IMG/VR virus record: IMGVR_UViG_3300042923_000607
Coordinates: 32,001-96,000 of that record
Length of the DNA stretch: 64,000 bases
DNA from: a virus
Direction: 5' to 3' (one strand)
This document shows positions 197-64,000 of the stretch, one piece after another. The position numbers and the translations under genes are program-made. The notes beneath the pieces were generated by a model. The model did no database searches and was not told the origin of the DNA. It saw only the letters and a list, made by a program, of their open reading frames with translations. Positions within the stretch are counted from its first letter, which is position 1; every line of letters begins with the position of its first letter.

Positions 197-241
197 GTTT
201 TCTTCCTCCTGATTTTTCACTATAGAATCAATAATTGGTTC

Positions 242-514
242 TCATATTAATTCTTTAATTCTTTCTTTCACTTTATGTAGTTCCCAAAACCCTTTGTCAA
301 GTAACTGATTGTCTTTCCATATAGAGAAGCCGTCAATACAGTTGTTATTGAATTTGATTACATATAATCCATCTATTTCAAATTTCGTATATTGCATATT
401 ACCATTTAAAATTCTATAAATCTCTTGCCCATATATTTGATAATACTTATTCCTTTTTGAATCTTCATAAAAGGTAACATCTCCTTTTATTTCAGTAACT
501 TGCAAATGCTTCAC
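242..514 (-). CDS. hypothetical phage early protein
   Basis: 90-aa ORF with G-rich SD, co-oriented with neighbours. Confidence 0.65.
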   Translation of the reverse strand: MKHLQVTEIKGDVTFYEDSKRNKYYQIYGQEIYRILNGNMQYTKFEIDGLYVIKFNNNCIDGFSIWKDNQLLDKGFWELHKVKERIKELI

Positions 515-565
515 CCCCTTCAGTTCTTTGTGTAATTATACTATAAATATATAATTGTTACAATC

Positions 566-844
566 TTACATTTCTTCTTTAATAGCCATAAATCCAAAAC
601 ATATAGGTAAAAGAAATACCAGAGCTGTAGGATCTTTTAGTATTAGACTTATTACTGTTAAGAGTACTAGTAGACTAAGGCCTCCGGCAATATGTTTTGC
701 TCTATAGCTGGTTAATTGATTTACTATTGTATTTAATATTTTTAATCTCTTCTCTCTCTTATGCTGCCTATATATTCTCACTACCTGGTCATATGAATAG
801 AACTCAATTACATTGCTGTTTCGCTGCATTTGTGCCCCCTTCAC
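566..844 (-). CDS. small membrane protein
   Basis: two hydrophobic C-terminal segments (GLSLLVLLTVISLIL; ALVFLLPICFGFMAI). Confidence 0.6.
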   Translation of the reverse strand: MKGAQMQRNSNVIEFYSYDQVVRIYRQHKREKRLKILNTIVNQLTSYRAKHIAGGLSLLVLLTVISLILKDPTALVFLLPICFGFMAIKEEM

Positions 845-1132
845 TTTCTATACGTTCCATAACAATGGATATCAATTTGTTCCATGCTTCTTTTTTATTG
901 TGTTCTTTCTGTTGTTCTGTAAGTTTAATATTTTTATTCATCTGTTTGAATCCTTTCAAAATCTTTATAAAAGAGTACTTTTATGTTGCTTGTGTTTGAT
1001 ATTACTATTAATTATTACATTTAATCCGTACGTCCCAAGATAATTCTATTTCAATCATGCGGCTGTCCTCCTGTTTAAATGTATTATTTACTGTATCAGC
1101 TACTAACATACTTTTAATTCCTTTCCGCCTGT

Positions 1133-1321
1133 TTAGGCTATATAATCCGTATCTGCCATATCAGATATATTTGGTGTTTGTTTTATAGATTCTAACTCTC
1201 TCGTAAAACCACTTTTAATCATAATTGCATACGCTAATATTAAAGCATCGTCCTCATTGAAAGCTGAAGCGTATACTGTCTTAGCGTTCTTAAAAGTTAT
1301 AATATAATGATTGTGTTTCAT
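1133..1321 (-). CDS. hypothetical phage protein
   Basis: 62 aa, SD AGAAAGGA. Confidence 0.65.
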   Translation of the reverse strand: MKHNHYIITFKNAKTVYASAFNEDDALILAYAIMIKSGFTRELESIKQTPNISDMADTDYIA

Positions 1322-1365
1322 ATTTTATATTCCTTTCTAATAGACTATAAATACATTCTTTTATT

Positions 1366-1659
1366 TTATACAGACATTGTTCCATCTGAATAATCATTCA
1401 CACATTCAAAGTAATCTTGATTACTCTCTCTGCTGTAATATTGTTCATACATACTTGTTTGACAACCTTCATCACCTAAATTGCAATTTCTGTTTATGTG
1501 ATTTGCACAAGTATCGCAATCTTTAATTAATGTATTTTCAATTTCTAAAAATCTATGTTGTTCTATATCTGTTAACTCTATTCCATTTTCTAATTTTATT
1601 TTTAAACTTGTTAATTCACCTATTAAATTTGATTTCTTTTCTATACTTAAACTATACAT
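1366..1659 (-). CDS. hypothetical Cys-containing phage protein
   Basis: 97 aa, CDTC...C...C motif, SD AGTAGGT. Confidence 0.65.
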   Translation of the reverse strand: MYSLSIEKKSNLIGELTSLKIKLENGIELTDIEQHRFLEIENTLIKDCDTCANHINRNCNLGDEGCQTSMYEQYYSRESNQDYFECVNDYSDGTMSV

Positions 1660-1707
1660 TATACCTACTTTCTAACGGTTTTAGTTTACCAATAACTAAG
1701 TAAAATC

Positions 1708-1941
1708 TTAATTTTGTTTGCTTAATTTGTTTATTTGTCTTGTATAATAACCTTTATCTCTTTTATCGTTTGCATGTTCACGACATATCATTAAATATTC
1801 GATATCATTCTCATGAATTGCAGTATGAACATTTTCAATTTTAAGTATTTCATTTAATAATGATATTTTCATTCTGTTAGATGTTTCACTATTCACGGTT
1901 GATACGGTTTTGTATGTTTCTTTTAATACCTTTATATTCAT
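1708..1941 (-). CDS. hypothetical phage protein
   Basis: 77 aa, SD GGAGGTG. Confidence 0.65.
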   Translation of the reverse strand: MNIKVLKETYKTVSTVNSETSNRMKISLLNEILKIENVHTAIHENDIEYLMICREHANDKRDKGYYTRQINKLSKQN

Positions 1942-1987
1942 GCTTTACACCTCCAAAGTGTGAATAAAATGTTAGTTTTGTTTTGTT

Positions 1988-2131
1988 TTATCTATCTTTG
2001 TTCGCTTGACTATATGCACTGTATTCAGTATTATCCATGTTTGCATATTCAAAATAATTTGTAAATTGTAAATCGGTCATACTCATAAATTCATCATAAC
2101 AAAAATTATAATACTTTTCATCTTCGCTCAT
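1988..2131 (-). CDS. small hypothetical protein (47 aa, not in ORF track)
   Basis: GGAGGG SD then ATG AGC GAA GAT... to TAA. Confidence 0.5.
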   Translation of the reverse strand: MSEDEKYYNFCYDEFMSMTDLQFTNYFEYANMDNTEYSAYSQANKDR

Positions 2132-6387: not shown

Positions 6388-6780
6388 GTGATCAGCAACC
6401 TTACTATGCAACATATAAAACATTTAGATTTCAAAACACTTACTGATTCTGAGTGGCAACCAATATACAAATCGATTCGAGAGATTATTCCTGTAGTTGG
6501 TACTCTTCCATCTCGACGCGCGTTAAATCCGAGGTGTATGAAAACTTACATACAGTTAACAAATGGAGAATTAGATACGACTGAAACGCTGGATAGTCGG
6601 CACGTTAAAAGAATTAAAGATATATTGAAAAATATCCGGTCAAGGACAAAGAGAAAACCTGCTGTCGATTATGTCTACTTTTTAAGTGATTTAATTGAGT
6701 TGATGAAATATGAAAAAGATTTAGAAATACGTTTAGTTCACGATGAAGTTACATACTGGGAAGTTTGGATTAATAGATAA
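6388..6780 (+). CDS. hypothetical protein
   Basis: 130 aa, SD AAGGAG, between helicase and RNAP. Confidence 0.7.
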   Translation: MISNLTMQHIKHLDFKTLTDSEWQPIYKSIREIIPVVGTLPSRRALNPRCMKTYIQLTNGELDTTETLDSRHVKRIKDILKNIRSRTKRKPAVDYVYFLSDLIELMKYEKDLEIRLVHDEVTYWEVWINR

Positions 6781-6817
6781 CATATATAACACAAAACATG
6801 TATGGAGGATGATTTAT

Positions 6818-9433
6818 TTGAGTGAATATGGAATAAAAATCAAGAACATTGAAGCTAGTACGTTATTCGAATATAATAATGGCATTAGGGATCACTACGA
6901 ATATAAAGATGCAATGTTAACTAATAGTTTATTTAATGATTTTTTACAAGAAAATGGGATGAAAGTATGGAAAGAAGAATCTACTAGAGATATTATTTGT
7001 TTGGAATTCAATTTTGGAACAAGGTCTTACGACGAAGAAAAAAAACATTTATTGGATATTGCTAAAAAATCAAGATTAGAATATAAAATAGCAAAGTCAC
7101 ACAGAAATAAAAATGAGATAAAAAGCAAATCTAATAAAAGAATAAAAATAATGAATTTAATAAAACTTGTAGATGAAAACAAGGATAAGTATATTAAAAT
7201 ATCCAAAAAGGAAATTAGGAGAATGTATTACAATGATGGAGTGGAAGTAGAATATATAACAAGAAACAAAAAGGGAGAAATAACAAAAAGAGAAAAAATA
7301 CATTATAAAATGCTTTATAGGAGTACGGGGAAGGCGAAAAAAGGATCATGTATGTTTATTTGTGATAGATTACACAAAAAGGCTATTGATTTTTTGAGAA
7401 TGAAAATAAAAATATCTAAAAAAAATGCCCCTATAGTTGAGATAAGTGCTTACAGCCCTTTGGTTTCAAGTGCTATAGTAGGTCGGATAAAAATAAATCC
7501 AAAAAACATATTGATATTAAAAGATATAGAAAGATCTTTCATAACAAACGTGGTAAGCATAGAAACTGATGAAAACAAACATTGTTTTGCTAAAAACATA
7601 GATAATTACGAGTTAAAAAATACATTGTTTGATGGGCAGGCTCTTATAGATAGTGGGATTTTCCCAGAATGGGGAAATGGATATATATTATTAAGACATC
7701 ATTTTTGTAAAATGGCTGCATTTAGTACAAATATTCAAAAGTTTTTTAAAGATTATTTTGGAGATAAATATTTAACGGCAACAGTTAAAGACATGTTTGG
7801 CAGTGAACATTTTGTGAAAGACATAGAGTTGATAACAACTGATAATGCAATGAAATGGTTAAAGTTTGATAAGTCGTATGAATATTGGTGTGAGAAAGTT
7901 TATGAAAATAACTGCATGTTTGGAATTGTAAAAACCGCACATAAGAGTAAACTTGGAGATGTACAAAAAATGAGTTATCAAATGGTAAACTCCCTTGATG
8001 AACACATTATGGATGATGTAGTAAAAGAAAGTGTTTCTTATGTTGAAAAATTAAAACAAGATGATGATTTTTTCTTGGAATACTTAGAAAAAAATAAAAA
8101 CTTTTCAAATGATCACGAAGTATTGATTGCTCTATGCAACCAAAATAAAGATTTTACAAGGAGTGAGTATTTCAGAAGAAGAAAAAGAAAAATAATAGAA
8201 ACTTATGTTCTGAATTTAAAATCAGGAAAGATCATTCAGAATGCGGAGAATTTAGTCATCGTAGGCTCTCCTTATGCTATGTTACTATATGCTACGGATG
8301 GAAAAGAGAATAACGTAGATAAAGATGACACCTTTTTTGTAGAGGAAAATACAATACAATGTTTTACTCAGAGGTTTGATGATGACGAATATTTGGCGTT
8401 CTTCAGAAGCCCTTTTAACAGTAAAAACAATTTAACTTATTTACATAATAAATATAACTATAAATTAGATAAATATTTTAACCTGGGCGAGCAAGTGGTT
8501 GCGGTTAATATGGTGGGGACTGATTTTCAAGATAGGAACAATGGTAGTGATCAAGATTCAGACAGTGGATATACGACTAATCAAAATAATATAGTGGAAC
8601 ATGCGAAAATGTGTTATTTAAAATATCCAACTATAGTTAATAATATTCCAAAAGACAAAAATGTATATAGTAATACAATGGATGACTTTGCATTGATTGA
8701 TGATATGTTAGCTAATTCACAAAGAGATATTGGAGAATCTAGCAATTTAGCCCAGATAGCACAAACCTATGCTTGTAATTTTAATGATAAAAAATATATT
8801 GATTATGTATGTATTCTATCAGTTTTAGCTCAAGTTGCGATCGATAATGCAAAAAGACGATTTGACATTGATTTAACGCAGGAAATACGAAGAATAAAAA
8901 ACGATATGAATATAAAGAAATATAAATACCCTGAATTCTGGTTGATTATTAAGAAAAATTTTAATAGGAAGAATATTAATTATGGATTAAAATGTCCAAT
9001 GAATAAATTGTATGATTTGAACTTATCAGAATTTCATCCAGCAGATACCACTCTTCTAATGTCTGATTTTTTTATAAAGTATCCTCTCGATAAAAAAGAT
9101 ATATTTAGGAAATCAATGAAAGTAGAAGAATTATTACATAAATATTCATTATCAATTTATAAATCCAATATAAATGATGGTTCAAACGAAGATTATTTAT
9201 TATTGAGAAATGACTATGCAAATCTCTTGAATGATATAACCAAAATCAACATATCTTATAATTATATTGGATTGTTTTCATGGCTAATTGACAGAGCATT
9301 TATTATAACGCCCAATATAAAAAGCACAAAAAAAGAAATTTGTACTTTGCTGGATAAAAATAAATCTATGTTATTGAAAATATTATATGACGTAAATAGT
9401 AAAAATTTATTAAAATGTTTTAAAAATGGTTAA
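6818..9433 (+). CDS. yonO: YonO-like single-subunit (double-psi barrel) phage RNA polymerase
   Basis: LFDGQALID, FRSPFN and catalytic NGSDQDSD (DxDxD) motifs; position upstream of the late operon as in SPbeta; probable TTG start after GGAGG. Confidence 0.85.
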   Translation: MSEYGIKIKNIEASTLFEYNNGIRDHYEYKDAMLTNSLFNDFLQENGMKVWKEESTRDIICLEFNFGTRSYDEEKKHLLDIAKKSRLEYKIAKSHRNKNEIKSKSNKRIKIMNLIKLVDENKDKYIKISKKEIRRMYYNDGVEVEYITRNKKGEITKREKIHYKMLYRSTGKAKKGSCMFICDRLHKKAIDFLRMKIKISKKNAPIVEISAYSPLVSSAIVGRIKINPKNILILKDIERSFITNVVSIETDENKHCFAKNIDNYELKNTLFDGQALIDSGIFPEWGNGYILLRHHFCKMAAFSTNIQKFFKDYFGDKYLTATVKDMFGSEHFVKDIELITTDNAMKWLKFDKSYEYWCEKVYENNCMFGIVKTAHKSKLGDVQKMSYQMVNSLDEHIMDDVVKESVSYVEKLKQDDDFFLEYLEKNKNFSNDHEVLIALCNQNKDFTRSEYFRRRKRKIIETYVLNLKSGKIIQNAENLVIVGSPYAMLLYATDGKENNVDKDDTFFVEENTIQCFTQRFDDDEYLAFFRSPFNSKNNLTYLHNKYNYKLDKYFNLGEQVVAVNMVGTDFQDRNNGSDQDSDSGYTTNQNNIVEHAKMCYLKYPTIVNNIPKDKNVYSNTMDDFALIDDMLANSQRDIGESSNLAQIAQTYACNFNDKKYIDYVCILSVLAQVAIDNAKRRFDIDLTQEIRRIKNDMNIKKYKYPEFWLIIKKNFNRKNINYGLKCPMNKLYDLNLSEFHPADTTLLMSDFFIKYPLDKKDIFRKSMKVEELLHKYSLSIYKSNINDGSNEDYLLLRNDYANLLNDITKINISYNYIGLFSWLIDRAFIITPNIKSTKKEICTLLDKNKSMLLKILYDVNSKNLLKCFKNG

Positions 9434-13295: not shown

Positions 13296-13401
13296 AATAC
13301 AGTTTTTATATTGATATATCTAGGGAACCGGGTGCCACAGCTCGGTTCTTTATTATTGTACTACTCTCCTACCGTAGTGCAAATTAATTATATGAAAGGA
13401 C

Positions 13402-46316: not shown

Positions 46317-46327
46317 GGAGTGAAAAC

Positions 46328-50551: not shown

Positions 50552-50626
50552 GTATTTATTATACCACTTCTCTCCTAGTTCTTCAAGACTAAGAGTATAA
50601 ATCGAAAGGGTGAGGTGCGATGTAGT

Positions 50627-51079: not shown

Positions 51080-51087
51080 GTAATGTT

Positions 51088-51345: not shown

Positions 51346-51393
51346 CTATTGATGAGCCATAATTCAGGCTCTTTTTTTATAGGAGGATTCACT

Positions 51394-51783: not shown

Positions 51784-51813
51784 CTTTTTTGAAAGTTTGA
51801 AAGGATTAAAAAT

Positions 51814-52572: not shown

Positions 52573-52687
52573 ACATAAAAGAGAGATTTTATAGGGATAG
52601 ACTTAGTTGTCTATCCCATTTTTTTACTTTTATTAGTTTCCCATAGATGTTGATGGATTCTTTAAATTTATAGCCCCAAGTAAGTGG

Positions 52688-53626: not shown

Positions 53627-53703
53627 ATGTTACCTCAATCAAATATTTATCATTAATGTGTGTTATTAAGACTTATAATATACGGGTAATCAAATAAAAC
53701 TGG

Positions 53704-54960
53704 TTAGTGAACATTACTGTCCCTTTTTAACTCTTCTTCATTTATTTTATTCATTTTGTTTAGTACATCTTTAGCATTAATTCCCATCTTTTTTATATAT
53801 CCAATATAAGTGTCCATAGTAAGTGAAACGCTAGCATGTCCCATTAGAACTGATATTGTTTTAATATCTACCCCATTCAATAGAAGCATTAATCCATACG
53901 CTTTTCTAATTGAATGTATTCCACATTTATTAACTTTACAGTTAGCTCTAACTTGCATTGCATTTAAGGTTCTTGTTATGTTTCTCTCAGACTTTGGTTT
54001 ACCATCTGTACCTAATAAAACTTTATCCGTAGGATTATGATTTGGATTAGATTTTTCTAACTCTTTAAGTGCTATAAGTGCTCTTTCAGGAAGGGGGATT
54101 GTACGGTAACTATTTTTTGTTTTTGGAGTTTTAATTTCTTTAATAACATGAGCTACTCCATTCTCATTTTTTTCTACGGATGCAGCTGCTCTTCTTATAA
54201 TAATTTCTTGTTTTTCATATGATATATCTTGCCACTCTAATGCTAAAAGCTCACCTATTCTAATTCCAGTATAAGCAACTAATACTATAGCATAAGCATT
54301 ATCACCATAAACTCGTGTGCCCTCTTTTCCAGTAAAACAGAATCCTGCAACATTTAATCGTCCAGCCTCTTTAAATAATAGGTCAACGTCTTCAGGTTCT
54401 GGAATCACATATTCTTTCTTTTTATTTGATACGTTTGATTCGCTTGGCATTTTTACAATAGTCATAGGATTTCTTAATATATCTCTTTTAGTTAATGCAT
54501 AATCAAAGCAAAGATTGTATAAAAAGTATGCTTTACTAACAGTACTTCTAGCATATTTAGATGCCAGTATATTTATGTGCTTTTGAATTACATCGGAATC
54601 TAATGCTGCCATTTGCATATTTATTGGATCATAACCCTTAATTTGATTTTCATATGTTTTCTTGTTAGTTAAATAACTAGATTTTTCTACCTCATTTATC
54701 CTGACGTTATAGAGCCAGTCTTCAATATAAGTTTGAAGTGTTTGCTTTTTTATTTCTTTGCTTGTTAAATAGTGGTTACTAGATTCAAAGTTCTTAATTT
54801 TTTCTTTAACTTCTCGCTGAGTTAAACCATAGAAATCTTTATATCTACCATTATACTTTTTTCGAAAATGGAAATACTCGATATCTTTGATTGTTTTCTT
54901 TCCCCAAGATCCTTCGCCTTTTGGCCGTCTCTTTTTACTAGCAGAACTATCCATAAACAT
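53704..54960 (-). CDS. int: tyrosine integrase
   Basis: RRPKGEGS arm domain, TGIRIGELLAL, PKT, HSIRK, MGHAS..T..TY. Confidence 0.92.
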   Translation of the reverse strand: MFMDSSASKKRRPKGEGSWGKKTIKDIEYFHFRKKYNGRYKDFYGLTQREVKEKIKNFESSNHYLTSKEIKKQTLQTYIEDWLYNVRINEVEKSSYLTNKKTYENQIKGYDPINMQMAALDSDVIQKHINILASKYARSTVSKAYFLYNLCFDYALTKRDILRNPMTIVKMPSESNVSNKKKEYVIPEPEDVDLLFKEAGRLNVAGFCFTGKEGTRVYGDNAYAIVLVAYTGIRIGELLALEWQDISYEKQEIIIRRAAASVEKNENGVAHVIKEIKTPKTKNSYRTIPLPERALIALKELEKSNPNHNPTDKVLLGTDGKPKSERNITRTLNAMQVRANCKVNKCGIHSIRKAYGLMLLLNGVDIKTISVLMGHASVSLTMDTYIGYIKKMGINAKDVLNKMNKINEEELKRDSNVH

Positions 54961-55050
54961 CTCCTTTAATATAATAAAATTGTTTACATTATTAAAGTAA
55001 TTTGATATAATGTAAATATTGTATCATGATTAAAGGGCTAATGCAACAGC

Positions 55051-55444
55051 GTTACCACTTATTTATTGATCTAATGAATATTTTACCCTTTAAGTTACCC
55101 ATTATAGAATTGGAAACCATGGTAAAAGGGATGCAAATAAGGTATTTAATGTGATATATAGTAAACTAAATAAATTATTCGAGCCAAATAAGACATAAAA
55201 AATCCAGTAAAATCAAGTATCTAAGGCTCTTATAATATACAATGCATCTATAGCTCAGTGGATAGAGCAGAAGCTTCCGAAGCTTTTACTCTAATTAACT
55301 AGGATTAGTTGTTTTCAATATATTTAAGCGTTCTTAATGTAAAATTACCACTTGTTTACCACTTATAGAACAAATATAAAAAAATACCACTTACTATTAA
55401 GCCTTAAGTGGTATTTTTTTTAATTCTTTTATGTCGTTACCCTT
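55051..55444. mobile_element. attP region with integrase arm-type repeats
   Basis: TTACC(A/C)CTT-like repeats at 55052, 55083, 55095, 55345, 55356, 55385 and 55437 flank a tRNA fragment between int and xis. Confidence 0.7.
55244..55286 (+). pseudogene. 5' half of tRNA-Arg(CCG), att core
   Basis: GCATCTA-TA-GCTC-AGTGGATA-GAGC-A-GAAGC-TTCCGAA-GCTTT; no T arm or 3' acceptor strand follows. Confidence 0.85.
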
Positions 55445-55462
55445 TGTCTTTGTTAATTCTAT

Positions 55463-55690
55463 TTAAAGTATTATTTCTTTTCCCATGTTTGCCTCCAACC
55501 ATTTAAGATATTTTTGCTCAGGGATTCTATAGCGATTTCCTATTTTTATCTTTGGGAAAGAACCAACCGCAAGTATTTTTGTCATTGTGTTTTTGCTCAA
55601 CCCTAAATGTTTCTGAACCTCTTGAACGGTCAGCATTTTTTCATAATCTTCTATGTTTTTATTATTCATAATTCTTCTCCTCTCAAGCAT
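55463..55690 (-). CDS. xis: excisionase-like HTH protein
   Basis: MLTVQEVQKHLGLS...FPKIKIGNRYRIP...WL. Confidence 0.8.
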   Translation of the reverse strand: MLERRRIMNNKNIEDYEKMLTVQEVQKHLGLSKNTMTKILAVGSFPKIKIGNRYRIPEQKYLKWLEANMGKEIIL

Positions 55691-56257
55691 CTATTTATTC
55701 TGGTTCAAATGTTGTTCTACTTCATACCAATTGAAACATCTTGTACCAATCCAATCCTCGTTCCAAGTATAAATGTCTCCAAAGCAAATATTTTCTTTTG
55801 CATTGCTGGTGTATAAATTTTTAGAAACATCATCAATTAATATTCCATCTGATAAATCTAAACATCTTTTGTCTATGTTAGTATCTATGTCTACCCCTAT
55901 TAGCTTAATAAACGGTAGATTCAATTTTAACCACATATTCTTAAGAAACAGATTTACATTTGTCCCCATGGATACGCAATAGATATCATAATTAGCCTTA
56001 AGTTTGTTTATTATTTCTAAAGCATTATCCATGTATTTCAAGTTGCTAAAAAATCTTTCATCAGAAAAATATTTATCAATTACATTATTATTTGCCAAGG
56101 GCAATTCGGAAAATCCCCATGTGGATATTTCAGTCCAGTGAACTGGTTTGTAGCTATCTGATTTTGCATAGTCAATATTATAAAGCTCAACCACTTTTTC
56201 TATCGTATTTACAATTGTACAGTCAAAATCCAAATAAAGTTTATTTATTTTAATCAT
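55691..56257 (-). CDS. 5'(3')-deoxyribonucleotidase (HAD)
   Basis: LDFDCTIV, LIDD, WN..W...RC.NW motifs. Confidence 0.85.
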   Translation of the reverse strand: MIKINKLYLDFDCTIVNTIEKVVELYNIDYAKSDSYKPVHWTEISTWGFSELPLANNNVIDKYFSDERFFSNLKYMDNALEIINKLKANYDIYCVSMGTNVNLFLKNMWLKLNLPFIKLIGVDIDTNIDKRCLDLSDGILIDDVSKNLYTSNAKENICFGDIYTWNEDWIGTRCFNWYEVEQHLNQNK

Positions 56258-56793
56258 CTCCCTTTATATTTTTCTATAATTTCAATAGCTGCTTCATTTG
56301 CTGTTTTATTTTCATTGTCAATTACAAATTTGTAGAGATGGCCTACAAATGAAAAATCTAACATATCCGCTTTAAATCTTCTTTCAGCTTCTGTATTATT
56401 ATCTCCACGATGCAATTGTCTCTTTTTTATTTCATCGTCTGAGACATTTAACAAAAAACTTGTGTGAGTTACATTTTTGTTTATAAGTTTATTTACACCA
56501 CTAGGAGTTAGAATGATTACATCATTATCAGTAGAATTCTCGACGCTATCAAGACTTGATCCGTAATACCAAATACCATCAGCTGTTGTATAGTATTTAA
56601 TTTCAATAAAGAATCCTTCGGTGTATTTTTTAAGAAAATCTTTGACGTTGAGAAAATGATAATCAACACCGTCTATCTCACCTTTTCGTTTAGGGCGGGT
56701 TGTAAATGTTGTTATGCGAGAAAACCCCATCTCACACAACTCTTTTACTATTTGATCTTTACCAGTTGCACTTTTACCTGAGATAACTAACAC
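56254..56793 (-). CDS. gmk: guanylate kinase
   Basis: GKSATGKD, TTRPKRKGEIDGVDYHF, YYG. Confidence 0.9.
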   Translation of the reverse strand: MLVISGKSATGKDQIVKELCEMGFSRITTFTTRPKRKGEIDGVDYHFLNVKDFLKKYTEGFFIEIKYYTTADGIWYYGSSLDSVENSTDNDVIILTPSGVNKLINKNVTHTSFLLNVSDDEIKKRQLHRGDNNTEAERRFKADMLDFSFVGHLYKFVIDNENKTANEAAIEIIEKYKGR

Positions 56794-57404
56794 TATTTAT
56801 CACCTCTCTCTTCGTGAAACATCTTATTATAGGCGTCATATCGATTTTGCAGGTTTGATATGTATAGATTATTTTTGTCGCAATATTTAAGGAATTTGCT
56901 CCAATAACCACAGGGTGAAAACTCGCAGCACCCTCCTCTATAAATACAATTTGGGACTAATACGTTTGACTCTAGTGGATGAGTATTATGTAATTCTGAT
57001 TTAAAGTCTTCCGCTAATTCTCTAGCTTCTTTTGTTGCTTGATAACATAGTCTTTTTCTCCAAGCGTCTATTAGATTTTGCATGTTTGCATATCCGTCAA
57101 AATTAACTAATGCCTCTTGTGTCTTTTTGTCCCTGGGGGTATCATCTTTTAGTCTATCGTCTCTCTGTGAGCTAATGAATTTTTCAAAGCGATGTCTTGA
57201 CCACTCAGTCGACAACCAATACTTAATACCTTTCCAACTCCAATCAAACTCTAATAATCTAATAGGAGAATGTTCTGATATAAGCAACTTCTTCTTGAAT
57301 GTATCAGTCGCTTCATTGTCTGTAAATTCTTTATTATCTGTTGTTCTGCAATGATTCTTTACTCTTGTCCAGTCGTCTATAACTTTGTTAAATTTAGTTT
57401 TCAA
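56793..57404 (-). CDS. thyX: FAD-dependent thymidylate synthase (ThyX-like)
   Basis: EHSP, EWSRHR...SQR, KRLC..A..E.R. Confidence 0.8.
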   Translation of the reverse strand: MKTKFNKVIDDWTRVKNHCRTTDNKEFTDNEATDTFKKKLLISEHSPIRLLEFDWSWKGIKYWLSTEWSRHRFEKFISSQRDDRLKDDTPRDKKTQEALVNFDGYANMQNLIDAWRKRLCYQATKEARELAEDFKSELHNTHPLESNVLVPNCIYRGGCCEFSPCGYWSKFLKYCDKNNLYISNLQNRYDAYNKMFHEERGDK

Positions 57405-57461
57405 TAAAATCTCCTTATATTGTTCTATATGTTATATTTAAAACACTAGCAAAGAATACTT

Positions 57462-58337
57462 TTATGTTGTTTTTACCCTGTTTACAGCTATATTAAACGT
57501 GTCTTTATCCTTTTCAATTCCTATGAATTTTCTATGTAAATTCTTGCAAGCTAGTCCAGTTGTATTGCTACCTATACAGGAATCAAAAACTATATCTCCA
57601 TCATTTGTATATGTCTTAATTATTTCTTCTAGTAATGCCAATGGTTTTTGAGTTGGAGTTAATGCGCACTTTTGAGTGTCCTTAGAAAACTTCCAAACGG
57701 ATTTAGGAAATCTTTCTGTGCTGTCATATGTATGATTGTTAATTTCTCCATAGTTACTTGACTGCTTACTATTCTTCTTATGCTCAGCAGTACTAACTTT
57801 TCTTAAATGTCCATTTGTCTTTTGAGGATTATACGTTGGTTGATTCTTATAAAATACACACATATCTTCATGATTTCTCATTGGCATTCTATTAGCGTTC
57901 TGAAACCCAGTTGGTTGTGTTTTTTCCCAAATTAAATTATATCGCCACATTTCTTTATTACTTCGCATCAAGTCTGCAGTAAACATTCCATTAGCAAATA
58001 ATACAATTGCTCCATCATCTTTAATTATCCTATTGTATTCAGTCCAAATTCCAGACCTTTTATTAAAATGGAAATAATCTAATGCTTCTTTATAACTCAA
58101 TTTACCATTCATATAACAGTAAAGAAGAAAATCATCTAGGTACATTGTTTTATATTTCTTTCCAATATTTACATCTATGTAGTCATTAAACGGAATTATT
58201 ATATCCCATTTGTTTCTTGCGGTCTGTCCATATGGAAGATCAGTACAAATTAAATCCACAGACTTATCTTTTATATGTTTCATTAATTCTAAACAATCAC
58301 CTTTATACAAGGTTATATCTTTTAATATTTCCATCAA
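57462..58337 (-). CDS. N4/N6 DNA methyltransferase (beta class)
   Basis: DLPYG, PTQKP, DSCIGSNTTG, GIE. Confidence 0.88.
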   Translation of the reverse strand: MMEILKDITLYKGDCLELMKHIKDKSVDLICTDLPYGQTARNKWDIIIPFNDYIDVNIGKKYKTMYLDDFLLYCYMNGKLSYKEALDYFHFNKRSGIWTEYNRIIKDDGAIVLFANGMFTADLMRSNKEMWRYNLIWEKTQPTGFQNANRMPMRNHEDMCVFYKNQPTYNPQKTNGHLRKVSTAEHKKNSKQSSNYGEINNHTYDSTERFPKSVWKFSKDTQKCALTPTQKPLALLEEIIKTYTNDGDIVFDSCIGSNTTGLACKNLHRKFIGIEKDKDTFNIAVNRVKTT

Positions 58338-58417
58338 TACTCAGAGTAAAATGCATTTTATCGGTCGACCAAACCTCTTACTCCTTTCCTTTTTATTATC
58401 AAATACTCCTTTGTTTG

Positions 58418-59086
58418 TTAATCCATACCTTCGTACAAACTTGCTTCTGTTAATCCTTCAGTGTTTTTTTGTTGTTGAATGGCTTGTATTATTTTCAATT
58501 TAGTTTCCTTACAAGGTAAGTAACCATACTTAATATATCTAATCATTCTCTCAAATGTTGAAACGGGGAATGGAATTTTATCATCTGTTACTAGTCTTTT
58601 TAAATGTAGATGCTCAAAGAAATTTGAATCACATAGGATTTTATATTCTATATGAGATTTATTTTCTTTAGCCTCTGTGCCAACAATTTCTATGTCTTCT
58701 TTGTCTAAAACTTCTTCTTTAAAGTAAGCAAACTTTGCTATTGTAAAATCAAAATTTTCAAGGATTTGTTTAGGTGTTCCATATATTGTATTTATAAGCT
58801 CCAATGCAATCCCTGTTTTAATGTTTTTATATGCTTTAACTTTTTTGTTCTCATAATAAAAGCAATATGTACCACCTTTATTATCTTCGCCGCAAAGATT
58901 ATCATAGTACTTTACGGCCTCTTCAAAGTCTTTTTGTGATTCAAAGAAAATGTCTAAATCTTTTACTTTTTCATTGCTGAATATATTTTTAAAACATCCA
59001 CCAGCAATGAACCCCTTATGTCCTGTCATGTATTCATCTAACCAATTTAATATGTAAAAGTTATCTCGCTCTTTTTTTACTAACAT
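58418..59086 (-). CDS. nucleotidyltransferase-like protein
   Basis: AGGCF...KDLDIF, FDFTI, ER..RY..YG. Confidence 0.75.
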   Translation of the reverse strand: MLVKKERDNFYILNWLDEYMTGHKGFIAGGCFKNIFSNEKVKDLDIFFESQKDFEEAVKYYDNLCGEDNKGGTYCFYYENKKVKAYKNIKTGIALELINTIYGTPKQILENFDFTIAKFAYFKEEVLDKEDIEIVGTEAKENKSHIEYKILCDSNFFEHLHLKRLVTDDKIPFPVSTFERMIRYIKYGYLPCKETKLKIIQAIQQQKNTEGLTEASLYEGMD

Positions 59087-59120
59087 TTGTCTCCTTTCTC
59101 TGCCAAATATCCGTTTTATG

Positions 59121-60203
59121 CTATTTAATGCTTTTATTTAAATTCATAAATAATCTATCTAATCCCTTTTCAAAAGCTCCAATTCCTGAAAATAAAGACA
59201 GCATTTTCACTTCATTCATAACCTCTGGCAAAACCTTATGTAGTTCTTTAAATATGTAATATGGAATAGTAGTAACAATTGAATTACCGGCTTGTTTAGA
59301 TATCTGTATGTCTGTTACTCCAGCCTTTTTAGCTTTATAATAATCTTTATCATCAAATCCCATTAGTCTCATACGCTCTTTTGCAGTCATAAATCTAATT
59401 CTATCTTTTGATTCAATTACAACTAATCCTTGTTGAGAGGCAGTTAGGGTAGGGCAAATGCAACCCTTACCTTGAACCCTTCCTCTTCTTGTCTTACTCA
59501 TAGGATATGATAGATCTGCAATCCCTCCTAGATCACAATTAATGTATCCCTTTTTAGTAGCTTGTGAAATTGGTATGGTGTCATCAATTTCTTCTTTTAA
59601 ATATCTCCCAATCTTTAATAAATTATTGTTTAATATAACATCAGCTGATATATAGTAAGATTCGTCAGCGTTATCTTCAAGAAAATCTTGTGCTATACAA
59701 TACAGCTCCTGTTTGACGGGAAACTTAAATTCACCATTATCTATATCTTTCCGAATGCTTACGATAAATACTCTTTCTCTCGATTGAGGTATATCATAAT
59801 CTTTTGAACATAATATTTTATAGTAGGTGTTATATCCGGCAGCTTCTAAGTCGTTTAAAATAGTGTTAAATTCATTTATAAACTTCTTGGAAAGCAAGTT
59901 TCCCACATTTTCTATTATTGATATACAAGGTTTATTTGCTTTTAATATTCTCATTCCATCATAATATAGTCCGCTTCTTGTATTGTTCCCCATTAAATCT
60001 TTAAAGCCAATCATATTGCCAGCCTTAGAAATGTCTGTACATGGGAATCCCCAAGTCATCAGATTAAAATTATCAATTTCCTTTTCATTAACCTTTTTTA
60101 TGTCTCCCAAATTAAGACTTGTATTTGTGTTATGTATTGCACAATATGATTTGATTGCATGCTTATCTAGTTCGCAAAAGTTAACTAATTTATATTTTTT
60201 CAA
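59121..60203 (-). CDS. dcm: C5-cytosine DNA methyltransferase, circularly permuted (motif I at C-terminus)
   Basis: GFPCTDIS, ENV, QSRERVF, RLMGF, QAGNS, then LSLFSGIGAFE. Confidence 0.9.
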   Translation of the reverse strand: MKKYKLVNFCELDKHAIKSYCAIHNTNTSLNLGDIKKVNEKEIDNFNLMTWGFPCTDISKAGNMIGFKDLMGNNTRSGLYYDGMRILKANKPCISIIENVGNLLSKKFINEFNTILNDLEAAGYNTYYKILCSKDYDIPQSRERVFIVSIRKDIDNGEFKFPVKQELYCIAQDFLEDNADESYYISADVILNNNLLKIGRYLKEEIDDTIPISQATKKGYINCDLGGIADLSYPMSKTRRGRVQGKGCICPTLTASQQGLVVIESKDRIRFMTAKERMRLMGFDDKDYYKAKKAGVTDIQISKQAGNSIVTTIPYYIFKELHKVLPEVMNEVKMLSLFSGIGAFEKGLDRLFMNLNKSIK

Positions 60204-60319
60204 TCCTGCTTTCTATTGGTTGCGCAACCATTTACCTAGGATTATTTCCCTTTCTTTTATGTATTGTTTAATATCTCTATTATCAATCTAAATAAAACGT
60301 TAGTTTGGTGTATATTTTA

Positions 60320-60366
60320 TGACTATATATTGTGTTTATTAATGTTTACAACACTATATATTGTAA
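60320..60366. promoter_or_regulatory. tandem NrdR-box-like sites
   Basis: TGACTATATATTGTGT (60320) and ACACTATATATTGTAA (60351), 31 bp apart. Confidence 0.6.
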
Positions 60367-60629
60367 TACTTATTTTCTTTTTCTTCCCTCCGGCTTTCCT
60401 CTCCTGACACGATGCAGCAACTCAATATAACCATAGTTAAAATACCCGACACAAATCCAATTGTTAAATTAATCATTTTCTTCATCCTTTTCATTAAAAT
60501 CCTCATGTAGTTGTTTGTTATATCTTCTTCTTAATCTTTCTTCTTCTGCTATGTAATAATCTAAAATATCGTAGTTATCCGGGATTATGTCTTTCAAATA
60601 TGTACCTCTCCTTTATGTGTTTATGTTTG

Positions 60630-61292
60630 TTATTTATAAAATGAGTGCCCGCTATTATCTGTGAACAAATATTTTAAGGCCAAGAACCACTTCTTATTTT
60701 TTGATGATTTCACATCGTTTGGGTTACAAAAAAACAATGCCTCGTTAACGACTCCATTAAGTAAAATTTCATCTACTGCTTTCCTGGTATCATCTGTTAT
60801 AATGACTTCATAATATCGTTTGTCCGCTATTGGCGAAAACTGCCTTTTTTGGAATACTACTTTCTCAATTGTATCTGGGAATTCATCGCTTTCTAATCTA
60901 TTAATTATCACACTAACAACGTTTTTCTTTGATTCTATATCTCCACCTGTTACTTCAGCTTCGGTAATTCTTTCAAGTATTTCAACCTCACTCTTGCTGA
61001 AATTATATTTATATGTATCCTTAGCACCAGAGAGAGGTTTTGATTTCTTTTTACTCTCTCCAGTGGTAGATGGGGTGGGTGTTACAGTAGGAGTTATATA
61101 TTCAACACCAATCGTTGGTGTAGGTGTCGGATCGCTAATATCCGACTGCGTGTAATAAATCTCATACTTATATTCTCTGCCTTCCTCATGAACGGAAGAC
61201 TTATTCTTTTGCTTCCACTCAAATGAGCTGACTAGTAAGGTCATGGCGATTACTACAATTAAGCCGCCACTTAGTAGACTCTCTTTTCTCAT
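60630..61292 (-). CDS. SleB/Hydrolase_2-family cell wall hydrolase with N-terminal TM
   Basis: RITEAE, V.SVI.NR.....FPDTI..VV.Q..QFSP, ALFF, GH.FY. Confidence 0.88.
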   Translation of the reverse strand: MRKESLLSGGLIVVIAMTLLVSSFEWKQKNKSSVHEEGREYKYEIYYTQSDISDPTPTPTIGVEYITPTVTPTPSTTGESKKKSKPLSGAKDTYKYNFSKSEVEILERITEAEVTGGDIESKKNVVSVIINRLESDEFPDTIEKVVFQKRQFSPIADKRYYEVIITDDTRKAVDEILLNGVVNEALFFCNPNDVKSSKNKKWFLALKYLFTDNSGHSFYK

Positions 61293-61325
61293 TTTGTGTT
61301 CCTTTCATTATGTTTTATTTGTTAG

Positions 61326-61829
61326 TTATTCAATAATCTCTATTTTTATCTTTCTTCCATTGAATCGGTCAAGTATATCCGAGATATCAATATCGCCCAG
61401 GAGAACTTCTTTCCAACCGTATGCATCATAAGTCACGTTTACCGTCCCTACGTATTTTGTAATTTGAGCATCTAGGAATCTATTTCTCAATGTTGCATAT
61501 ATTATGTCTTCGCTTAAGTAATTCCCTAGTGGCAAAGCATCATCCATCCCATCAGTAAAATCAATGATATTTCCATTTTTGAGCAATAGATATATATTAA
61601 ATCTATAAAACCCAAATCCATCCACTGGTGAATATCCGTCTACTTGATCAAAAGTCCTATAATCAGATGCTGTTATTTCATCCTTAAACTCCGCTTTGAG
61701 TTTTTCTAATGCCCTATAAACATTCATCGTGTATTCTTCTCTTCTGTCTATGCAATTGCTTTCGTGTCTTTTATAACTCAGGTATCCTTCTATGTCTTCT
61801 CCGCAGCTTTCACAATTATACTTACTCAT
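61326..61829 (-). CDS. hypothetical protein with N-terminal Zn finger
   Basis: CESC...HE..C; ATG after GGAGG. Confidence 0.65.
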   Translation of the reverse strand: MSKYNCESCGEDIEGYLSYKRHESNCIDRREEYTMNVYRALEKLKAEFKDEITASDYRTFDQVDGYSPVDGFGFYRFNIYLLLKNGNIIDFTDGMDDALPLGNYLSEDIIYATLRNRFLDAQITKYVGTVNVTYDAYGWKEVLLGDIDISDILDRFNGRKIKIEIIE

Positions 61830-61981
61830 ATTAACCTCCAGATAATATTTTAATGTTGTATATGTTATATAGTATGCTATATTCATTAACTTGTTACTAG
61901 AATTTACTCTGGGGTATATGTACGATTAGTTTTTCATTCTGTATAGTTCTAGCTCTAAGCAACTTTTCTCCTTTCAATTAC

Positions 61982-62010
61982 ATTATATGTTCTATATGTT
62001 ATTTTGTCAA
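61982..62010 (-). promoter_or_regulatory. consensus sigmaA promoter with operator in its spacer
   Basis: TTGACA-AAATAACATATAGAACA-TATAAT. Confidence 0.85.
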
Positions 62011-62047
62011 CAGATTTATTTAAGATAAAATCCTAATTCTGTATCGT

Positions 62048-62386
62048 TTATTTAACTTTTTTAGCAACCCTTTCATAGACGTATCTCTCTTCGGTTAAGT
62101 TTTCTTTAATATAAATCTCCGCTTCTTCTTTTTTTGAAAATAATGCATCAACGAAATATATCTTATTATCAGGAGACGTTTCGACACAATGTTGGAATTT
62201 CATATTCTCAGTGTCAGTTAAAATTGTCCCCATATAATACCCACACCAAGAATCATATCCTTTAAATAGAGTTGTTGCCGTTTCTACTTCATATGGGTGT
62301 ACAAACCAGCATAACCTTCCTAAATCGTACGGTAAATACATAACATTATCATTAACTACATTTGTATAATAATCAAAATCGTACAT
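62048..62386 (-). CDS. hypothetical protein
   Basis: 112 aa, SD AAGGAG. Confidence 0.65.
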   Translation of the reverse strand: MYDFDYYTNVVNDNVMYLPYDLGRLCWFVHPYEVETATTLFKGYDSWCGYYMGTILTDTENMKFQHCVETSPDNKIYFVDALFSKKEEAEIYIKENLTEERYVYERVAKKVK

Positions 62387-62400
62387 ATTGGTTCTCCTTT

Positions 62401-62607
62401 CTATTTTATCTTATATATTTTATTGATGTCCATTTTTTTATCTTGTGATAAAATGTCGTATTCTGATTGAGTCATTAATATGGGCATCTTTCCATACTTC
62501 CTGACTTTATTTTCAAATAAATCGTCCATTAAAAAATCTATTAATTCTTGCTTTTCTTCTTCGTCCAAAGTTTCACTTAAATAATATTTCAATTTACCAA
62601 TTGACAC
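62401..62607 (-). CDS. hypothetical protein
   Basis: 68 aa, coupled to the upstream gene. Confidence 0.6.
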   Translation of the reverse strand: MSIGKLKYYLSETLDEEEKQELIDFLMDDLFENKVRKYGKMPILMTQSEYDILSQDKKMDINKIYKIK

Positions 62608-63140
62608 TAGGCGTTACCTCTCTCTTTGTTGATTTTCAATGAATTGATAAAATTATTCAGTCTTTCAGCCACTCCATCGTTTCCTCCCATGTCAAAAACT
62701 GGGATGTTATGTGCCTTTGCAATTCTAATGGCCTGACCCGTTCCTCCTGAACCACTTCCATTTTTAGTCCAACAAATAATAAATGAACTTGGAGTTTTTA
62801 AATCGTACCCTAGTACTTGATAACAGTTTCTGGCTTGCAACTTTCTAGCTCCATCAGATAATTTACTCCAATATGGGTGGAATTCTTCTGCTATTTTAAG
62901 GGCTTCCCCTGATGTGTTATATAAAGTAGATGAGGAATTTTCAAAACCTTTCCATGGAAGAAATATTTCTTTCTGGCCTCTAACACTATCACATCCAATT
63001 TCAAAAGCACTATCGGCTCCTTTAGCACCACCTGATCTTAAGACAAATCCTTTTTTCGCAAATATCATAGCAGCGTGTTCAAATTTTAGTAGCATATCTT
63101 TAGGGGTTTCTCTTGATCCTATACCTGCGTAATAAATCAT
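62607..63140 (-). CDS. SLOG/DprA-like Rossmann-fold protein
   Basis: YAGIGSRETP, LRSGGAKGAD..FE, ARN..QVLG, GGTGQA.R.A. Confidence 0.75.
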   Translation of the reverse strand: MIYYAGIGSRETPKDMLLKFEHAAMIFAKKGFVLRSGGAKGADSAFEIGCDSVRGQKEIFLPWKGFENSSSTLYNTSGEALKIAEEFHPYWSKLSDGARKLQARNCYQVLGYDLKTPSSFIICWTKNGSGSGGTGQAIRIAKAHNIPVFDMGGNDGVAERLNNFINSLKINKERGNA

Positions 63141-63165
63141 AATACTTCCTTTCTGAATAGAAATC

Positions 63166-63468
63166 TTATTTTACGTTAATTATATCATCTACAAGTTTAA
63201 ACAATTCAAGCAAAGCATTCTGAACGTTATTTGTGTTAATAACCTCATCAGACAAGTTGTCATCATTTAATTCAAGCAGCCAAAGATATTCTTTTTGATA
63301 ATATGTAGCATCTCCTATAGCATCAGTTAATTTTTTATATCTTCTTAAGTAGTTGATTGCCGTTGCTATTGCCAATGTTTCTATATTTTCTGTATAGCTA
63401 CATCCTTGAACGCTTTGAGTTCCACAGGTTTGCTTTGCCCATTCAAGCCTCTTTATTAAATCTTCCAT
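63166..63468 (-). CDS. hypothetical protein
   Basis: ATG at 63468 after AAAGGAG. Confidence 0.6.
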   Translation of the reverse strand: MEDLIKRLEWAKQTCGTQSVQGCSYTENIETLAIATAINYLRRYKKLTDAIGDATYYQKEYLWLLELNDDNLSDEVINTNNVQNALLELFKLVDDIINVK

Positions 63469-63496
63469 TATTTCTCCTTTTATAAATAATTTCTTT

Positions 63497-63829
63497 TTAT
63501 TTATCTTTGATGGTATACAAATCTCCATCTTTTACCAATATTTCATATTTTTCATTGAACTCAATCAAGCTAACTTCATTACTTATTGTAACTTTGTATT
63601 CATATTTGCCAGTATTGAATCTTATAGGTTCTTCTATCATCATCATTATTGATATAAAAGCTGTACAAGCTATAATGATACCTAATGCCCTAAGTATAAC
63701 ATGTTTGTGCTCTATGACTAAGTACAATCCGTAAAACAGTAAAATGCAAGCAACAATTACAATTATTATATTAATTTCAGTATTTGTTTCATATATTTGT
63801 ATCTTACTTAATACGTCCAATCCATCCAA
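63497..63829 (-). CDS. two-TM membrane protein
   Basis: two hydrophobic helices; YKVTIS..VS..EF.EKYEI. Confidence 0.7.
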   Translation of the reverse strand: MDGLDVLSKIQIYETNTEINIIIVIVACILLFYGLYLVIEHKHVILRALGIIIACTAFISIMMMIEEPIRFNTGKYEYKVTISNEVSLIEFNEKYEILVKDGDLYTIKDK

Positions 63830-64000
63830 TTAATTCACCTCCAAATCAATGTTTGATAGCATAGTTTTTTATTTTTTCTTTAAACTCATCTCTTGTACAT
63901 CCATAAAAAGATATTCTATTCAGTTGAAGTTTTTTGATTAAATACAGTTCCCTCTCACAAGACTCTAGCCAACATTCATCTTTGTTAGTTTTTTGTTCTT

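Follow-up and report, generated by a model that had tools for sequence, protein, structure and literature searches.

An 18-bp palindrome at the gene junctions of a distant SPbeta relative and its possible role as a crossover point between phages

The stretch of phage DNA described here, hereafter denoted the window, comprises 64,000 nucleotides (nt) and corresponds to bases 32001-96000 of the 116,239-bp IMG/VR virus record IMGVR_UViG_3300042923_000607, which is estimated to be 72% complete. It carries many copies of an 18-bp palindrome, ATAAAA-N6-TTTTAT, which, as a first-pass annotation of the sequence had noticed, marks gene junctions across the whole genome. The same 18-mer recurs in phages of several Bacillales genera, and the ends of homology between related phages fall at it in excess. 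On the basis of these sequence comparisons we tentatively favour the view that a protein binds the palindrome and that crossovers there let related phages swap gene blocks; a purely regulatory operator is a strong rival to this view.

The palindrome is real and not a product of chance. Exact copies number five in the window compared with 0.14 expected, and at least five were found in none of 100 dinucleotide shuffles; with at most one mismatch there are 12 copies (3.76 expected), and none of 100 shuffles contained at least 12. The enrichment over composition-matched shuffles that the first-pass annotation had proposed to test for is present for exact and one-mismatch copies, and is absent for matches with up to two mismatches (51 in the window, 44.2 expected, with 51 reached by 25 of 100 shuffles). 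In the whole genome, the exact arms occur eight times at a spacer of 6 and zero to two times at all other spacers in the range 0-20, whilst the one-mismatch palindrome is found 37 times compared with 8 for the reversed pattern. Genes were called with a simple caller made for this analysis, which gave 190 genes and 87% coding DNA, leaving 13% of the genome as intergenic. The refined consensus is RYMAAA-N6-TTTKRY, and its loosened core, MAAA-N6-TTTK, occurs 44 times in intergenic DNA at spacer 6 versus 0-12 times at spacers 2-10 (23 at N11 and 17 at N12); within coding DNA the same core shows no excess at spacer 6 (52 versus 31-62 at other spacers). Over the whole genome all eight exact matches are intergenic, as are 17 of 29 with one mismatch and 27 of 77 with two. 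An unbiased inverted-repeat scan of all 5-mers placed TAAAA-N6-TTTTA at the top in this genome (13 versus 2.9).

All 14 copies listed by the first-pass annotation were found at their coordinates. Five of them (222, 1347, 50363, 62025 and 63157) are weak or half sites in which one arm or both deviate from the core, and the list lacked two exact copies (967 and 52575). The degeneracy of several listed copies, together with the lack of enrichment among two-mismatch matches (51 versus 44), is what might be expected if the palindrome arose by chance from AT-rich intergenic DNA, TAA stop codons and T-rich leaders. This explanation is refuted by the spacing controls and retains virtually no probability: the caveat of AT-richness is answered internally both by spacing (8 versus 0-2) and by intergenic location (44 versus 0-12), the reversed-pattern control gives 8 copies against 37, and the palindrome recurs in unrelated genomes, where it is restricted to prophages.

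In transcript orientation the 44 sites read A (33 of 44), T (28), A or C (32 and 12), AAA, a free centre, TTT, T or G (25 and 19), A (30) and T (30). The centre is free save for a scarcity of A at position 7 (2 of 44) and of T at position 12 (4 of 44). Variants in the left arm are the same as those in the complemented right arm, and the logo is symmetric; only 6 bp per arm are informative, with flanks below 0.5 bit, and the two arms are identical in inverted orientation. Inverted 6-bp arms around a 6-bp spacer do have the geometry of a tyrosine-recombinase core, as the first reading of the sequence had pointed out. Watson-Crick pairs at positions 3/16, 2/17 and 1/18 number 25, 19 and 26, respectively (23.4, 20.6 and 24.2 expected); covariation at positions 3/16 is absent (Fisher P 0.73, 44 sites), and there is no compensatory variation. 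The predicted RNA hairpin has an energy of approximately -0.4 kcal/mol for an exact site and a mean of -0.89 over the 44 sites, with AAA-UUU pairing in the predicted fold of only 16 of the 44. Since the arms vary independently, the RNA hairpin is unstable, and sites occur also in convergent and divergent gaps, the palindrome is therefore read as a double-stranded DNA site, recognised from both sides, and not as a hairpin.

The usual layout is a stop codon, 0-10 nt (or none, where the TAA of the arm is itself the stop), the site, 3 nt, GAAAGGAG and the start codon; the GAAA of the Shine-Dalgarno sequence (SD) starts 3 nt past the site in 25 of the 44 cases. The reported overlap with, or abutment on, stop codons is borne out in eight genomes, in which the TAA of an arm is the called stop at 82 of 289 intergenic core sites and at 75 others a gene stop lies no more than 12 nt away. 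When long gaps are pooled over the eight genomes, the site is tied to neither neighbour, with 61 sites closer to the stop and 48 closer to the start. In the late arm, sites stand at the ends of transcription units, adjoining terminators. No promoter was found within the palindrome, and whole gaps are typically 28-48 nt.

Its location between stop codon and SD, with the regular placement of the GAAA, could suggest a small AU hairpin acting as an RNA terminator, processing site or translational spacer between cistrons, and in SPbeta two of the 13 exact copies of the palindrome overlap GenBank 'stem_loop' features. Such a role is nonetheless very improbable. Beyond the marginal fold and the lack of compensatory variation, the U-tract after the stem is absent, and copies are present in divergent promoter gaps; the stable GC-rich hairpin plus U-tract of an intrinsic terminator was not seen at the palindrome, true terminators instead adjoining some of the sites. 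Furthermore, the late genes of SPbeta are reported to be transcribed by the RNA polymerase YonO as one operon (PMC5467207). This operon contains four palindromes, and since it is read as one unit across them, the sites do not stop YonO.

A composite pattern of site and SD, scanned over IMG/VR, retrieved five records with two matches each, and these records contain 28, 21, 11, 13 and 8 palindromes compared with 0-1 for the reversed control. In SPbeta itself (NC_001884) the exact palindrome is present 13 times at spacer 6 versus 0-1 at other spacers, and the core has 39 intergenic copies versus 8-18. The palindrome also came top of the unbiased inverted-repeat scan in SPbeta (34 versus 1.7) and in two other genomes, G009 (36 versus 2.2) and G010 (35 versus 4.8). 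It likewise ranked first in prophages of two Paenibacillus (29 and 27 copies) and of Aquibacillus (50); Bacillus rugosus yielded 31 copies and a Bacillus-like contig 24. Outside the SPbeta group, the genomes with the motif have no DNA homology to each other or to this phage. In a 6.4-Mb Paenibacillus host genome all 20 copies lie within 82 kb, which is the prophage; the prophage share is 23 of 31 copies in Bacillus rugosus and 6 of 11 in Virgibacillus, and in another Paenibacillus seven of nine copies are on one contig. A Fictibacillus with a YonO-bearing prophage has two copies only, and among 43 further YonO-bearing genomes approximately eight show a clear excess (for example 39 versus 3, 23 versus 2 and 28 versus 9), most being without it. 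The confinement to prophages, with an excess in only part of the YonO-bearing genomes, therefore identifies an element of a subset of SPbeta-like phages and not a host-wide signal.

Relatives found by other routes show no excess of it. Alignment of the portal protein gave 29 loci at 25-62% identity, of which G001 and G002 (portal 48%), taken whole, have no excess at spacer 6, their TAAAA-N6-TTTTA copies being mostly coding; G003-G005 showed no excess over the reversed control, nor was there a palindrome excess around ligase relatives in metagenome contigs (45 loci, 38-61% identity). An alternative junction palindrome was not found in the motif-less prophages G024, G045 and G020. The motif-less relative G001 has a palindrome of its own, cTT-TGTTA-N8-TAACA, with six copies against 0.33 expected, five of them intergenic and all clustered within 14 kb (67109-80690). 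A description of the ATAAAA palindrome was not found in the part of the literature on SPbeta phages that was consulted.

The confinement to prophages also bears on whether the palindrome is an architectural site, that is, a bent or narrow-groove A4-N6-T4 element read by shape by a nucleoid-type protein, either a phage HU-like protein or one of the host, and serving to organise or compact the phage genome. The invariance of only the A and T tracts, the centre being free save for positions 7 and 12, is in keeping with this, as is the HU-family protein YonN encoded by SPbeta. We consider it improbable, because a host protein should have sites in host DNA, because the HU-like gene of SPbeta has no counterpart in this genome by tblastn, and because the spacer of 6 is strict, with spacers 5 and 7 at background.

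The comparison of breakpoints between relatives, called for by the first-pass annotation, was made within one phage group. We counted the ends of homology blocks lying within 10 nt of a site and compared them with a null matched for intergenic location. SPbeta and G009 share 32 blocks with 62 internal ends, 12 of which are near one of 34 sites compared with 1.7 for the matched null and 0.6 for random placement; 12 was reached in none of 2000 simulations (P<0.001), and the reciprocal count is 11 of 64 versus 1.9. At the level of junctions, 14 of 39 hit junctions have a site, compared with 15% (uniform, P 0.0009) or 20% (length-weighted, P 0.016) of all junctions. The excess is replicated in three of five further pairs, namely SPbeta with G013 (9 of 78 ends versus 2.2 expected, P<0.001), G009 with G013 (8 of 72 versus 2.5, P 0.003) and G009 with G017 (5 of 62 versus 1.8, P 0.02). 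The compared genomes are interrelated, and breakpoint events may be shared between pairs.

The first-pass annotation had proposed checking whether breakpoints between relatives lie within the 6-bp spacer. An excess at the sites is indeed present; its location is different, as the joints lie at the outer edge of the 18-mer. The alignments themselves say more than the counts. At seven clean joints between SPbeta and G009 (39885, 57147, 73668, 86073, 99497, 113663 and 116414) the 18-mer is identical, including its centre, and unrelated DNA begins at the outer edge, even where the site precedes 90-400 nt of non-coding DNA (39885, 57147, 99497 and 116414). In three of these seven the site is kept with the gene upstream and in the other four with the gene downstream, and no chimeric spacers were found in the SPbeta/G009 alignments.

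For the window itself, contigs of four soil sequencing runs were aligned to 44001-64000 at 80% likeness. Among the breakpoints listed (58, of hundreds), seven lie within 10 nt of one of 11 sites compared with 2.7 for the matched null (P 0.013). One soil contig skips 62024-63160, from site to site, and others diverge at 44717, 44736, 60285 and 63857. Sites at both ends are found for this skipped segment and for the C5 cytosine methylase gene. Of the two accessory genes said at first pass to be bracketed by paired sites, the C5 methyltransferase is so placed (59102 and 60292), whilst the 'second depolymerase' (48958-50283) has no Pfam match that would bear out its name; the accompanying idea of one gene per interval does not hold, as intervals between sites contain one to several genes.

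A soil relative also lacks window positions 63467-63834, which hold a 110-codon open reading frame resembling a membrane protein; in that relative six other letters link the upstream SD straight to the next start codon. This indel is bounded by a start-codon/SD region and by the SD adjoining site 63840, and therefore not every joint uses a site. To the left of the window, two sites are separated by 20 nt at genome positions 12966-13003 and two overlap by 13 nt at 10842-10864; close pairs also occur in a Paenibacillus prophage (G011p, 63055/63080). Such pairs may be footprints of lost cassettes.

These observations are best explained if two inverted copies of one phage protein bind the two AT arms of the 18-mer and DNA is broken and rejoined, or a template switch takes place, inside an arm. 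The site would then be a preferred crossover point, at which related phages would exchange the gene blocks on either side. With arms that are all alike and 6-bp centres that all differ, such a crossover would leave the whole 18-mer with one parent and unrelated DNA at its outer edge, as is observed. A protein-bound crossover point is suggested by the conservation of the palindrome across phages without other DNA similarity, its restriction to phages, its dyad symmetry, its free 6-bp centre and the ends of homology; that recombination there is catalysed, as opposed to incidental, is inferred.

Several observations weigh against a crossover point. The junction-level excess of breakpoints, real as it is, is modest at approximately two-fold. 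Among block ends, the excess is not significant for G013 with G017 (4 of 55 versus 1.5 expected, P 0.06) and is absent for SPbeta with G017 (1 of 50 versus 1.1). Approximately 80% of SPbeta/G009 block ends fall elsewhere than at sites, and replaced segments mostly have a site at one end only. Where two genomes share an 18-mer, BLAST may extend the alignment through it, so that the end is snapped to the far side. The arms of known recombinase sites measure 9-13 bp, compared with only 6 bp conserved per arm here, and classical tyrosine recombinases need identical spacers, such that exchange across different junctions would call for a tolerant enzyme or another mechanism. Finally, the tyrosine-recombinase families considered below are also present in four to five of five motif-less genomes, and no subfamily was seen to co-vary with the motif.

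With respect to the protein, iterated profile searches with the 190 proteins against 13 genomes recovered no more than three families from all eight motif-bearing genomes, i.e. a 630-aa helicase-like protein and two tyrosine-recombinase families, which are present too in three to five of the five motif-less genomes; tblastn of the 190 proteins against six genomes returned no protein common to all those with the motif. A recombinase-type binder is favoured because a recombinase-fold protein is the only kind of DNA-binding protein found in every motif genome, and the candidate, by elimination, would be an Xer-like protein of the tyrosine-recombinase fold. The 246-aa protein of this phage, SPbeta YopP and YomM have Xer models as their best NCBIfam matches, at approximately 41-62 bits and far below the cut-off of 220-335; the 246-aa protein retains HxLR, LGH and the C-terminal tyrosine. 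A helix-turn-helix (HTH) family resembling YopB gives the best fit by presence and absence (seven of eight motif genomes, none of five without), which is weak evidence for a binder, the cluster being a generic Cro/C1 family with an unconserved recognition helix. No family always has a site at its own promoter or end; the C5 methylases come nearest (three of four genomes). The most consistent pairing of gene and site is likewise that of the C5 methylase genes (window 59121-60203, genome 102671-103612 and SPbeta mtbP).

This distribution is pertinent to the strong rival, according to which the palindrome is purely an operator or roadblock for a dimeric phage regulator, for example SroE/YopQ of the DndB family or the YopB-like HTH protein. 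Bound in the lysogen, it would insulate junctions or block read-through in the manner of a stoperator, and recombination would be a by-product of the sites being the sole sequence common to diverged phages, similar to the PeSLs of phage T4 considered below. Dyad symmetry with independently varying half-sites, the tight packing of stop, site and SD, and the late-arm sites at transcription-unit ends beside terminators are all what an operator would show; the phage is temperate, with adjoining MrpR- and YopQ-like genes and an integrase, the YopB-like family tracks the motif as above, and for SroE the role of a further repressor, its mode unknown, has been described (bioRxiv 10.1101/2025.11.27.690993). 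We regard the operator as somewhat unlikely even so. Adjoining DndB/MrpR genes are found in YonO-bearing genomes without the motif (including G020, G024, G026, G036, G040, G042, G045 and G051), the HTH cluster is of a generic kind, and among the conserved families there is none with a site at its own promoter. Moreover, a lineage-specific regulator is unlikely to keep one sequence across phages without DNA homology and with approximately 20-30% protein identity, and joints at the outer edge inside long gaps are left unexplained by regulation alone.

Other correlates and known boxes were tried and rejected. The presence of PF14072 (DndB/SroE) fitted at first as a marker, until 43 more genomes gave SroE/SroF pairs without the motif; YonO is not a sufficient correlate either, being carried by G001 and G015 in the motif's absence. 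The MrpR/SroF operator of SPbeta (SPBRE) differs in sequence, and the chromatin affinity purification sequencing (ChAP-seq) peaks at yorM and yorZ have an SPBRE of their own. A YonO promoter or terminator was set aside given a mapped start elsewhere and a late operon spanning four sites. The ComK box, which is AAAA-N5-TTTT, and the CodY box have the wrong spacing or orientation, and the IHF consensus does not fit the palindrome.

By analogy, the palindrome appears to work most like the PeSLs of T4-type phages and pdif modules, even though the defining anatomy of both is lacking, as is that of attC sites, stoperators and SPBRE. PeSLs are short conserved elements between small accessory genes that bound insertions, deletions and replacements among relatives (PMC2839356); modular shuffling is proposed to be driven by recombination between copies, and mini-circles have been shown (Arbiol et al. 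2010, PMC2839356). The palindromes are similarly dispersed at junctions, with indel and replacement boundaries of relatives falling at them. Unlike PeSLs, which are approximately 50-100 nt with a sigma-70 promoter and a working terminator hairpin, the palindrome is an 18-bp dyad without a promoter or stable hairpin. On Acinetobacter plasmids, many pdif sites (dif modules) flank adaptive genes that move as modules, presumably by an Xer-type enzyme (Mindlin et al. 2019, PMC6449649). The palindrome shares with them the inverted arms on either side of a 6-bp centre and the many copies in accessory regions. However, a pdif site is 28 bp long, has arms of 11 bp for XerC and XerD and is served by host XerC/D, whereas the arms here are 6 bp and identical, the element is phage-borne and absent from the host chromosome, and most SPbeta/G009 replaced segments have a site at one end, two segments of the window having one at both.

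The stoperators of cluster A mycobacteriophages, bound by the L5 repressor gp71, are asymmetric 13-14-mers, oriented with transcription, bound by monomers and lineage-specific. The palindrome resembles them in being one short site present in dozens of copies in the short intergenic gaps of a temperate phage, often at stops and among both early and late genes; it differs in its dyad symmetry and its retention across genera. SPBRE, the MrpR/SroF operator in SPbeta promoters, is bound by a recombinase-fold protein (PMC10516654), and SroF of phi3T is described as reading an asymmetric box of 24-26 bp as a monomer (bioRxiv 10.1101/2025.11.27.690993). From the SPbeta promoters named in PMC10516654 we derived ATACA-N7-TGTAT with a conserved centre (six at N7 versus 0-1). 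Both are repeated intergenic elements of the same phage family, and some SPBRE copies lie just upstream of an SD; with approximately 10 oriented copies located at promoters, SPBRE is different in sequence and layout from the palindrome, and SPbeta carries both, with 34 palindromes.

The first-pass annotation had gone on to propose integron-like shuffling of cassettes, which our results do not support; the other reading that it offered, binding sites for a single phage protein, agrees with all of the observations. attC sites are 57-141 nt and recombine as a folded single strand with IntI. Like the palindrome, they may include a stop codon, and a cassette boundary falls at the edge of an imperfect palindrome; here, in contrast, the site is 18 bp, with no folded attC-like structure of 57-141 nt, no IntI and no attI or common promoter. 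It is kept with either neighbour (upstream three times, downstream four times), whereas attC always follows its open reading frame. The integron integrase model TIGR02249 scores 24 bits for the 246-aa protein and 38 bits for the 416-aa integrase, far below its cut-off of 265.

A more specific form of the crossover reading is an 'addressed' exchange of cassettes, in which a phage Xer-like recombinase would act on 18-bp cores whose unrepeated centres forbid deletions within a genome and permit swaps at the same junction between co-infecting phages. Spacers are not repeated within a genome (0 duplicates among 13, 34, 35, 29, 27 and 50 sites), an observation in favour of a crossover point in general that is only suggestive, as approximately 1.5-3 duplicates would be expected in total. 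We consider addressed exchange unlikely.

The sites of the window and the genes mentioned with them are collected in Table 1.

Table 1. Palindromic sites and associated genes (window coordinates unless stated otherwise)
Feature	Position	Strand	Remarks
Palindrome	222-239		On the first-pass list; AAA/TTT core broken in both arms; probably no site
Palindrome	967-984		Exact, ATAAAA-GAGTAC-TTTTAT; intergenic, left minus-strand arm; new
Palindrome	1347-1364		One mismatch, ATAAAT...TTTTAT; stop codon 1 nt away, next SD on other side
Palindrome	1700-1717		GTAAAA-TCTTAA-TTTTGT; core intact; overlaps called end of gene 1708-1941
Palindrome	1964-1981		One mismatch, ATAAAA-TGTTAG-TTTTGT; stop 6 nt before, next start 22 nt after
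Palindrome	13292-13309		Exact; its TAA is the stop of gene 12840-13295; followed by GC hairpin terminator 13321-13352
Palindrome	30023-30040		Exact; convergent junction; arms give the stop codons of 29592-30026 (+) and 30037-30336 (-)
YopB-like Cro/C1-type HTH gene	30037-30336	-	Lone minus-strand gene within late structural arm; stop from palindrome 30023
Palindrome	44719-44736		One mismatch, ATGAAA-GGATGA-TTTTAT; contigs of two soil runs break at both edges (44717, 44736); may be chance, because its spacer contains an SD
Palindrome	48826-48843		Exact; overlaps stop of 833-aa tail-fibre-like gene
Palindrome	50363-50380		One mismatch (ATGAAA); 79 nt past gene 48958-50283; hairpin terminator directly after
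Palindrome	52575-52592		Exact; 2 nt past last plus-arm gene, then hairpin terminator; new
Tyrosine integrase, 416 aa	53704-54954	-	One of the phage's three recombinase-fold genes, with those of the 246-aa Xer-like and the MrpR-like protein (the latter at genome 20408-21394)
Palindrome	57448-57465		AGCAAA-GAATAC-TTTTAT; overlaps stop of N6/N4 methylase gene
Palindrome	58398-58415		Core site, AACAAA-GGAGTA-TTTGAT in transcript orientation; new
Palindrome	59102-59119		GCCAAA-TATCCG-TTTTAT; just downstream of C5 methylase gene; match of a relative's contig begins at 59105
C5 cytosine methylase gene	59121-60203	-	Site on each side (59102, 60292)
Palindrome	60292-60309		ATAAAA-CGTTAG-TTTGGT; upstream of C5 methylase gene; a relative's contig diverges at 60285
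Palindrome	62025-62042		Half-degenerate, right arm TTCTGT; contig skip 62024-63160 begins 2 nt before it
Palindrome	63157-63174		Half-degenerate, left arm ATAGAA; contig skipping 62024-63160 resumes at 63161, within the site
Palindrome	63840-63857		TCCAAA-TCAATG-TTTGAT; a relative's contig diverges exactly at 63857
Xer-like tyrosine recombinase (PF00589), 246 aa	Genome 26452-27192		Left of the window

Judged by its MrpR-, YopQ- and YonO-like genes, the phage is a distant relative of SPbeta. A gene to the left of the window (genome 20408-21394) encodes the MrpR N-terminal core-binding domain PF22822 (E 1e-9), its product aligning from residue 1 with SPbeta YopR (21% identity, E 1e-7); directly ahead of it is a gene that matches YopQ (E 2e-5). 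The late plus-strand arm opens with window positions 6743-9433, which encode an 896-aa protein similar to the YonO RNA polymerase (23% over 337 residues, E 4e-6). A MazF-like gene is also present. The structural genes are of siphovirus type, and TerL is 31% identical to that of Bacillus phages Stahl and Basilisk. The runs containing this sequence are soil and rhizosphere metagenomes. Relatives at 70-98% identity were seen by protein search; megablast of two window stretches against GenBank phages gave no match, nor did the portal protein alone against IMG/VR, where close relatives of the MrpR-like and 246-aa proteins were also not found.

A second repeat, ACATATA(A/G/C)AACA, has 26 copies genome-wide, 25 of them on the sense strand of their own arm; those in the window are at 3165, 4227, 4532, 6411, 9739, 35375, 40616, 45155, 57421, 61854 and 61988. 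Several copies abut a TTGACA -35 box, and ACATAT is common to the SPBRE of SPbeta. This repeat is the likelier counterpart of SPBRE and may be the operator of the MrpR-like repressor. Near the integrase gene, a 40-nt island at 55243-55283 is the only part matched by contigs of two soil runs, which continue past it with sequence resembling a tRNA T-arm. ARAGORN found no tRNA gene at 54900-55500; the island probably represents the attP core, which would be common to the phage and a tRNA gene of its host.

SPbeta is a model temperate phage that has been studied for arbitrium signalling, its MrpR/SroF repressor and the RNA polymerase YonO, and at 34 copies the palindrome is three times as abundant in it as the known operator. 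Phages of Bacillus, Paenibacillus, Virgibacillus, Aquibacillus and uncultured soil hosts carry the element letter for letter, although they have no other DNA in common. Were it a regulatory operator, it would provide a target for an unassigned regulator such as SroE. As a crossover site, it would explain how phages of 110-140 kb hold to a common frame despite exchanged methylases, toxins and host-range genes, and would give a function to the orphan recombinases YopP and YomM as well as a natural set of orthogonal recombination sites; addressed exchange would further mean in-register swapping of accessory genes throughout a phage family found in several Bacillales genera. Both the operator and the crossover site are directly testable in B. 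subtilis.

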